This document shows, piece by piece, positions 11,819 to 12,529 of a stretch of DNA of 12,529 nucleotides. The notes under the pieces are model-generated. The model worked only from the letters and a program-made list of their open reading frames with translations, had not been told where the DNA came from and did no database searches. The stretch lies in the UHGV virus genome UHGV-1994978. The stretch is one strand, 5' to 3'. A program made the translations under genes and the position numbers. The number at the start of each line of letters is the position of its first letter. Within the stretch, counting starts at the first letter, position 1. This DNA comes from a virus.

Positions 11819-12529
11819 ATGGCAAGAATTACAAAAAAGGAATCAGGATTACACATACAGGTGATGGATCTAGTCTACTCAGATAAAAAACTGACTCAAG
11901 ATGATAAAGAATTCATCTTCAATAACTACAAGGGTGATGGTATCGGTGCTACGGGTGCTTTCTTTACTCCCGAAATGCTCGCATGGGATTTCATACTTGA
12001 TGCTGGCTCTACTGGTGACTGTATTGAACTATGTGCCGGGATTGGTCGCCTTAGCTACTACCAGTACTTAAGGAATAAGCCAACGCATATTACATGTGTT
12101 GAACTGAATCGAGAGTACGTAATGATTGGCAAAAGGGTACTGCCAGAAGCTGAATGGATATGTGGGGATGCTCTCCAGTACTCACCAGACCGTTTCTATG
12201 GTGTTGCCTATGGCAATCCACCATTCGGGAAGATCAATACCTCAGAAGCGTACACCGGCCGTTATAAGGGCAGCGAATTTGAGTATAAGGTGATTGAACA
12301 TGCCAGTAACTTTTCCTCATATGGTGTATGGATAGTACCGCAAGGTTCAGCAGGGTTTCAGTACAGCGGCGTACATTTCTATGAGCGTAGAGAGTCACAG
12401 AAGTACAAGAAATTCGTTGATAGTACTGGATGGTCGTTTGAACCAGGCTGTGGGATCGATACGTCGATTTACCGTGAAGAATGGAATGGTACGAACGTCG
12501 TGTGTGAGGTGGTTACTGTTGAGTACTAA
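11819..12529 (+). CDS. N6-adenine DNA methyltransferase, gamma-type motif order, no partner restriction gene in the window
   Basis: GAFFTPE (motif X-like), ELCAGIGRL (motif I, SAM binding) and GNPPFG (motif IV, NPPF) in that order; about 100 aa follow as a possible target-recognition region. Confidence 0.75.

Follow-up and report, generated by a model that had tools for sequence, protein, structure and literature searches.

A minimal orphan methyltransferase

The 12,529-nucleotide stretch of DNA analysed here in full (the window; UHGV virus genome UHGV-1994978) ends in a gene for a 236-amino-acid (aa) protein of the PHROG 3820 family, which is probably an active, minimal DNA adenine-N6 methyltransferase dependent on S-adenosylmethionine (SAM), orphan, and without a separate target-recognition domain. 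The open reading frame (ORF) begins with ATG and its TAA stop reaches the final base of the window, so that it is complete. A database search returned 1341 homologues (best E 1e-137), and the PHROG 3820 profile, annotated as "DNA methyltransferase", is matched over the full length of the protein (E=9.4e-104, aa 1-236 against positions 1-239 of 255). An earlier reading of this DNA, made from the sequence alone, had described a 236-aa ORF with FFTP, CAGIG and NPPF motifs in gamma-type order; these are present exactly as stated, and the adenine-N6 chemistry that it proposed is the best reading of NPPF.

The linear order is that of the gamma class, with motifs X, I (CAGIG), II (E95), III (D117) and IV (NPPF) followed by strands 5-7 (motifs V-VIII), and the protein has both the (N/D)PP(Y/F) tetrapeptide and the intact SAM-binding loop of that class (Table 1). 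Conservation was assessed in 30 close homologues and in 121 diverse ones. G74 is invariant and G76 at least 90% conserved in the first set, and both are invariant in the second, where N133 and P135 are also invariant and P134 is at least 90% conserved. E95 presumably binds the SAM ribose, as in class I methyltransferases generally. With SAM-binding and catalytic motifs all present, and invariant or nearly so, the enzyme is predicted to be catalytically competent. The ratio dN/dS is 0.055 and 0.12 against Escherichia coli copies of 93% and 74% identity, respectively. Purifying selection on the gene is strong, although the surrounding prophage is in decay.

An AlphaFold2 model built from the alignment of 30 sequences (pLDDT 88.5, pTM 0.87) shows two N-terminal helices, a flexible loop, motif X and a seven-stranded Rossmann core, whose final strand (aa 229-235) ends the chain; the sequence stops at ...VVTVEY and the C-terminal tail has a length of zero. 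No target-recognition domain C-terminal to motif VIII is seen in the model. The sequence-only reading had left about 100 aa for target recognition, but in the model these residues form motifs V-VIII and complete the methyltransferase fold, which would leave no separate recognition domain. As modelled, the protein is a bare catalytic domain with a 45-aa N-terminal helical hairpin. Outside the catalytic core this hairpin is the only element of notable size, and it aligns with the helix preceding motif X in HsdM-type enzymes; the other additions to a minimal core are three strongly conserved loops (aa 137-155, 175-184 and 210-216).

No restriction partner gene adjoins the methyltransferase, either upstream or downstream, in the window or in the contigs that encode an identical protein. 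Upstream are a divergent gene for an 82-aa lipoprotein and a 71-aa ORF. The contigs with the identical protein continue past the window end into a 73-aa DUF2188 gene and then the host genes mipA-yeaE-gapA, so there is no restriction gene downstream. The only nuclease-like genes in the window encode a SegE-type GIY-YIG protein (9658-10107, +) and an HNH/AP2-like protein (1831-2331, +), neither of which is a recognised restriction partner, and the methyltransferase is the sole DNA-modifying enzyme recognised in the window. The orphan status and the phage origin that had been proposed for the gene are thus both borne out, the gene being located in a prophage.

Table 1. Features of the methyltransferase gene, its upstream region and the motif content of the window
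Feature	Position	Strand	Remarks
SAM-dependent amino-methyltransferase, complete coding sequence	11819..12529	+	236 aa, PHROG 3820 family, without C-terminal tail
N-terminal helical hairpin, aa 1-45	11819..11953	+	helices 6-19 and 27-36
Motif X, FFTP, aa 48-51	11960..11971	+	F48, F49, T50 and P51 invariant in 30 close homologues
Motif I, CAGIG, aa 72-76	12032..12046	+	SAM-binding glycine loop
Motif II, acidic residue E95	12101..12103	+	end of strand 2; invariant in 30 close, at least 90% conserved in 121 diverse homologues
Motif III, D117 (GDAL)	12167..12169	+	at least 90% conserved in 30 close homologues; putative role
Motif IV, NPPF, aa 133-136	12215..12226	+	predicted catalytic amino-methyltransferase tetrapeptide
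Intrinsic terminator after holin-like gene	11273-11290 or 11273-11300	+	7-bp stem with 5 GC pairs, then T-run
Imperfect palindrome AAATACCCGTACACA / TGTACAAGGGTATTT	11785..11817	.	15-nt arms, 80% complementary
GTAC, observed/expected	1-2815 and 4037-12529 (outside insertion sequence)		3.1x
AGTAC, observed/expected	as above		5.1x
CAGTAC, observed/expected	as above		9.9x
AGTACT, observed/expected	as above		8.5x

The nature of the substrate

DNA adenine-N6 is the most probable substrate, and we consider it fairly probable. The proposal that this is an orphan gamma-class DNA N6-adenine methyltransferase draws on the motif order, the orphan status and the phage-borne location, and, for DNA in particular, on predicted clamp-binding tails in the relatives; it fares less well on the thresholds of curated models and on the recognition region. 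Two results weigh against it. No curated Pfam or NCBIfam model is reached at threshold by the window protein, including N6_Mtase (PF02384) and Eco57I (PF07669), and its sole matches there are generic methyltransferase models below threshold. Furthermore, by sequence profile the core appears to be nearer to the MTS/COG2263 RNA and protein amino-methyltransferases. A profile of the 121 diverse members finds PH1948 (5.5e-8), RsmC (3.5e-7), Ta1320, a TrmN6-like protein, HemK (1.4e-4) and METTL5 (4e-4), with BseCI (1e-3) and PacII and the HsdM of EcoR124 (both 4e-3) ranked lower, and among the individual members 90 of the 121 match MTS, against 25 for N6_Mtase and 13 for Eco57I (the latter two at E<1e-3).

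These similarities could suggest an RNA amino-methyltransferase, forming N6-methyladenine (m6A) like METTL5 and COG2263 or N2-methylguanine (m2G) like RsmC, and acting on the rRNA or tRNA of the host as the phage develops. DNA and RNA substrates cannot be told apart by sequence and fold alone, as METTL5, PH1948 and RsmC score like HsdM and TaqI. However, the similarity to MTS may merely reflect a common minimal size, and the alignment with HsdM-type enzymes takes in the N-terminal helices and motif X: the bare-domain enzymes METTL5 (201 residues) and PH1948 (196 residues) align over 170 and 167 residues, and only DNA enzymes and lmo1582 align over 194-209 residues with the N-terminal helices included. 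No conserved partner gene, of the Trm112 type for METTL5/COG2263, was found across the genomic contexts compared. The phage carriers RB49, RB43 and KP15-like phages belong to lineages with unmodified cytosine, which fits DNA protection. In a defence library the best match of the window protein is mad2, the methyltransferase of MADS (PADLOC PDLC04134, E 1.2e-10), and in a viral structure library a Dickeya phage homologue with a partial N6_N4_Mtase fusion is followed by the methyltransferase domains of giant polyvalent phage proteins.

The evidence that bears most directly against an RNA substrate comes from the C-termini of the relatives. Many family members continue beyond the conserved terminal sequence ...E(V/I)V.V(E/D)(Y/F) into a low-complexity, disordered tail that finishes in QLSLF, QLALF, QLTLF, QGELF, QADLF or similar peptides, and QL[SD]LF is the bacterial beta-clamp-binding consensus. 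Among 84 family tails of at least 7 aa, with expectations taken from shuffled tails, 26 have Qxx[LMF]F within the last 15 residues, where 0.38 would be expected and no more than 4 occurred in any of 2000 shuffles, and 39 have [LMF]F within the last 12 residues, where 4.3 would be expected. The homologue from the Pseudomonas megaplasmid pTTS12 (locus L016 6001-6969) ends in ...FAQLSLFDAA after a Pro/Ala-rich linker. In the T4-like phages, which have their own clamp, gp45, the tail of the methyltransferase appears to copy the clamp peptide of the polymerase: the RB49 enzyme (locus L005 5001-5840) ends in ...ESGTLSDLFDI and RB49 gp43 in ...KVASLTDLFDI, while the RB43 enzyme (locus L006 5046-5780) ends in ...AQNLFTFTIE and RB43 gp43 in ...SLNTLFGDDW (NLF versus NTLF). 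The repeated gain of a predicted clamp peptide matching the carrier's own replisome suggests that the family acts on replicating DNA. An RNA enzyme would have no reason to bind a clamp, and with the tails statistically overwhelming in the family and the RB49 tail copying that of its cognate polymerase, an RNA substrate seems unlikely to us. The window protein and its closest clade have no clamp-binding tail, and the argument for DNA therefore extends to the window protein by way of its homologous catalytic core (identity to tailed members 45-57%). The papers searched do not describe clamp-binding tails on DNA methyltransferases from bacteria or phages.

Proposed function and distribution of the family

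A possible mode of action for the putative DNA adenine-N6 methyltransferase, by analogy with TaqI and HsdM, would be to flip the target adenine into the NPPF pocket and move the methyl group onto it from SAM. Sequence selectivity would come from the N-terminal hairpin and the conserved loops, and a target read by these elements alone is probably short or degenerate. The same core would, in many relatives, be tethered by its flexible tail to the replicative sliding clamp, in which case the family would methylate newly replicated mobile-element DNA, and the tail-less version in the window may do likewise, untethered. The likeliest benefit would be to mark or protect the DNA of the element against host nucleases, although we only infer this anti-restriction role. 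RB49, RB43 and the prophages avoid many restriction palindromes, and this speaks against blanket protection.

The PHROG 3820 family comprises about 480 clusters at 50% identity and was found in 289 phage records, among them Krischvirus (RB49-like), RB43-like, KP15-like, Aeromonas, jumbo, Sinorhizobium and Dickeya phages, and in 187 plasmid records, chiefly of Pseudomonas megaplasmids. A resemblance to the Dam of phage T1 (237 aa) was considered, and no T1-like phage appeared in the tally of organism names or among the listed phage records with homologues. The close homologues lie at the att-proximal end of prophages or beside a serine recombinase in Citrobacter, Salmonella, Edwardsiella, Enterobacter, Yersinia and Pantoea. 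Elsewhere the position of the gene varies: RB49 has it between baseplate genes 8 and 9, and RB43 between helicase 41 and primase 61. Apart from the clamp motifs and a partial N6_N4_Mtase piece in Dickeya jumbo-phage fusions, the extensions of the longer members contain no informative domain. In these fusions (BFVD A0A384ZXJ6 / P0126) the family domain is joined to a C-terminal piece of about 140 aa, whose match to Pfam N6_N4_Mtase is limited to the last 50 positions of that model and which may be a degenerate second DNA methyltransferase domain.

Literature searches found no characterised member of PHROG 3820 and no published activity test. The family is large, uncharacterised, of a minimal type and borne by mobile elements. 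The KP15/KP27 paper lists predicted Dcm and Dam methylases as the only DNA-modification genes and reports no other methyltransferases. The RB49 and RB43 groups have been reported to be without known genes for making non-canonical bases (PMC8056088; PMC13390438), which fits a role in DNA protection but is no proof of it.

The GTAC and AGTAC anomalies

The sequence-only reading had offered GTAC-containing sites as a guess at the target of the enzyme. The enrichment of GTAC and AGTAC is real and extreme, but the comparative data do not tie the motif to the enzyme. GTAC occurs 127 times in the window against 48±6 in dinucleotide-preserving shuffles, and longer forms of the site are also in excess (Table 1). 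All codon phases share the excess of GTAC (53, 30 and 28 sites), as do intergenic DNA and nearly every gene, and the two strands are affected symmetrically; codon usage was ruled out as the cause by the three enriched phases, the intergenic DNA and the two strands.

A reading in which the enzyme methylates (A)GTAC(T) to give GTm6AC, and in which the prophage lineage has multiplied the site to obtain a dense methyl mark, would account for this distribution, and the methyltransferase is the only candidate modifying enzyme that we recognised in the window. Between prophages of 71% identity, 46% of GTAC sites are kept, against a local 4-mer background of 30% (z 3.5). Close homologues are carried by seven AGTAC-rich prophages (2.4-5.2x) of at least three types, including an apparently intact one of a different type in Salmonella Cubana (L018) and one in Pantoea. 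The sequences compared with them are not rich in AGTAC (0.36-1.3x), the values being 0.36-0.65x for host flanks, 0.84x for lambda and 1.29x for T7. However, AGTAC has been purged from two T7-like prophages whose enzymes are 66% identical, in Yersinia (locus L019 1-11200) and Salmonella (locus L010 1-7100), which have 0 sites of 23.8 expected and 1 of 15.1 expected. In a mirror image of the window lineage, AGTAG is enriched 3x and CAGTAG 6x in these two prophages, again strand-symmetrically. Their enzymes nest inside the AGTAC-rich clade and differ from it by three fixed differences only, which makes a switch of specificity unlikely; a difference in specificity between the enzymes of the two groups was accordingly set aside as unsupported. 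RB49, RB43 and pTTS12 show no enrichment of AGTAC (0.45-0.79x). The comparison covers part of each prophage, and another gene could be responsible, while simple m6A brings no known benefit that would select for extra sites. Methylation of (A)GTAC(T) is, on balance, quite unlikely. The absence of AGTACT from RB49 and RB43 was rejected as evidence, as many 6-bp palindromes are missing from both phages.

An extended version, on which we would place very little weight, makes AGTAC (core GTAC) the mark of the enzyme. One group of prophages would amplify the site 3-10-fold, so that dense methylation serves as a cheap substitute for a hypermodified base, and the other would purge it, so that only host DNA is marked; in relatives the enzyme would ride the sliding clamp and write the mark during replication. 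AGTAC clearly matters to the carrier phages, and the data do not show it to be the target of the enzyme, nor do they exclude this. In our experience a motif that is 3-5-fold enriched in some carriers and absent from others is among the most extreme of short-motif statistics.

A second anomaly concerns sites that are missing. GCGC is absent from the phage-derived DNA in eight of nine prophage regions (0 in all versus about 110 expected); the ninth, the Pantoea prophage (L020), has 6 versus 16.8 expected. All 9 copies in the window are inside its insertion sequence (2816-4036) and none is in the rest, and the other GCGC-free prophages (loci L014, L017, L013, L007, L018, L019 and L010) all carry the methyltransferase. 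In the prophage DNA, GGACC occurs 2 times versus 51 expected and CTAG is at about 0.2x. These deficits indicate very strong avoidance of restriction sites, and together the AGTAC and GCGC anomalies point to an unrecognised sequence-specific pressure in the conflict between enterobacterial phages and their hosts.

Restriction-site avoidance also bears on whether the enzyme might modify many adenines with little or no sequence specificity, in the manner of M.EcoGII, a prophage-encoded non-specific adenine enzyme (PMC7736820). The lack of a recognition domain in the model would agree with this, and processive, context-free methylation would go well with the clamp tethering of relatives. However, avoiding restriction sites would be needless under blanket methylation, and RB49, RB43 and the prophages do avoid them, with GCGC gone from the prophages and many 6-bp palindromes missing. 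The strongly conserved surface loops suggest a defined contact surface, and TB34, a Krischvirus with a 52.5%-identical homologue, has no detectable modified nucleosides in its virion DNA and is sensitive to BREX (PMC13390438). That study nowhere mentions N6-methyldeoxyadenosine (m6dA), though Dam-positive T4 was among the phages analysed, so that only bulk methylation is excluded by it (PMC13390438). Taken together, we regard non-specific methylation as very doubtful. M.EcoGIX was dropped as a recognition-poor analogue, since it is a beta-class DPPY enzyme according to the paper describing it.

A protein glutamine methyltransferase like PrmC/HemK is hardly credible, for although HemK matches the family profile over the core (at the E-value given above) and several GenBank records label homologues "prmC: release factor glutamine methyltransferase", the protein does not have the combination of an N-terminal helical domain that binds release factors and an NPPY core.

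Genomic setting and control elements

The window comes from a prophage of an Escherichia chromosome. E. coli 14EC007 carries the element as a remnant of about 16 kb between yeaG and mipA, with a serine recombinase at its far end. The methyltransferase gene is the penultimate phage gene, at the mipA-proximal end of a decaying prophage that was integrated by a serine recombinase. When the gene and the whole window were searched at the nucleotide level against 50,697 phage records, only the insertion sequence was matched, and the prophage lineage is without a sequenced phage relative, its best tail-tip match being 27% identical.

Downstream of the holin-like gene, the terminator cuts the methyltransferase off from the late operon that precedes it on the plus strand, and the gene is therefore its own transcription unit. 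An imperfect palindrome with two GTAC sites takes up most of the 45 bp that separate the methyltransferase gene from the divergent lipoprotein gene. Folded as RNA (dG -13.3 kcal/mol, z -3.0), it sequesters the AAGGG ribosome-binding site of the methyltransferase. This palindrome may serve as an operator or in the control of translation.

Between the holin-like gene and the methyltransferase is a minus-strand pair, the lipoprotein gene (11525-11773, -; PHROG 7757) and the 71-aa ORF (11296-11511, -), which looks like a moron because it is missing from the Edwardsiella relative (locus L013). The small SegE-type nuclease-domain protein is syntenic in related prophages (loci L002-L004, L013 and L017), and the HNH/AP2-like gene is a homing-endonuclease fragment. 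The insertion sequence that interrupts the prophage is a complete copy of ISSen4 (IS3 family), 99-100% identical to copies in many E. coli genomes. The tail-tip fibre gene (4662-7822) is frameshifted near 6370 into ORFs 4662-6392 and 6650-7822 and is a single gene of 1067 aa in another strain (L002). A run of 22 N occupies 4702-4723.

Comparison with known systems

The well-known gamma-class enzymes (M.TaqI, the HsdM subunits of EcoKI, EcoR124 and StySJI, and the type IIG/IIL enzyme MmeI) are of 420-550 aa or more, and unlike them the window protein has neither a C-terminal recognition domain nor an HsdS partner gene; it falls below the Pfam N6_Mtase and Eco57I thresholds, and its family profile reaches these enzymes with E-values of only about 1e-3. 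The HsdM-like stand-alone methyltransferase lmo1582 of Listeria (PDB 2f8l) is longer, at 323 aa, and as its entry calls it a hypothetical protein and putative class I SAM-dependent methyltransferase, no function can be transferred from it. METTL5 and the archaeal PH1948/Ta1320 (COG2263) are rRNA m6A methyltransferases, in contrast to the DNA substrate proposed here. METTL5 requires Trm112 as a partner, and these proteins, of which about 170 residues align, lack both the N-terminal hairpin and the clamp-binding tails.

The likeness to mad2 extends over aa 25-151 of the window protein (profile positions 249-371), but mad2 is of about 490 aa and belongs to a multigene defence locus, whereas the window protein has no partner gene. 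The giant polyvalent phage proteins (PHROG 1685 and 11801) are also borne by mobile elements, and their methyltransferase domains match at 7.5e-6 and 5e-4 (Foldseek E about 1e-9). They carry helicase or lytic transglycosylase domains as well and, at 992-1479 aa in BFVD and about 2270 positions in the PHROG profiles, are some five to ten times larger than the free-standing window protein. Orphan phage Dam (T4 Dam, RB49 Dam) is similar in being orphan, phage-borne, adenine-N6-specific and small (about 260-270 aa), but Dam is an alpha-class enzyme that has an inserted recognition domain and targets GATC. RB49 encodes both Dam (39922-40734) and the PHROG 3820 homologue, and therefore the two are not redundant.

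DNMT1 is tethered to the clamp through a PCNA-interacting motif. The relatives of the window protein end in QLSLF-type or gp43-type peptides, for which clamp binding is predicted, and the window protein itself is tail-less. If confirmed, the tails would be a prokaryotic counterpart of DNMT1-PCNA tethering and would explain how the methylation of mobile-element DNA keeps pace with replication. As orphan phage methyltransferases are common, the gene alone is not surprising, but how a naked catalytic domain chooses its DNA target is an easily tested question. The window enzyme adds a new structural variant to a familiar kind of phage function, and the clamp tails of its relatives, together with the AGTAC and GCGC anomalies, are the parts worth following up.
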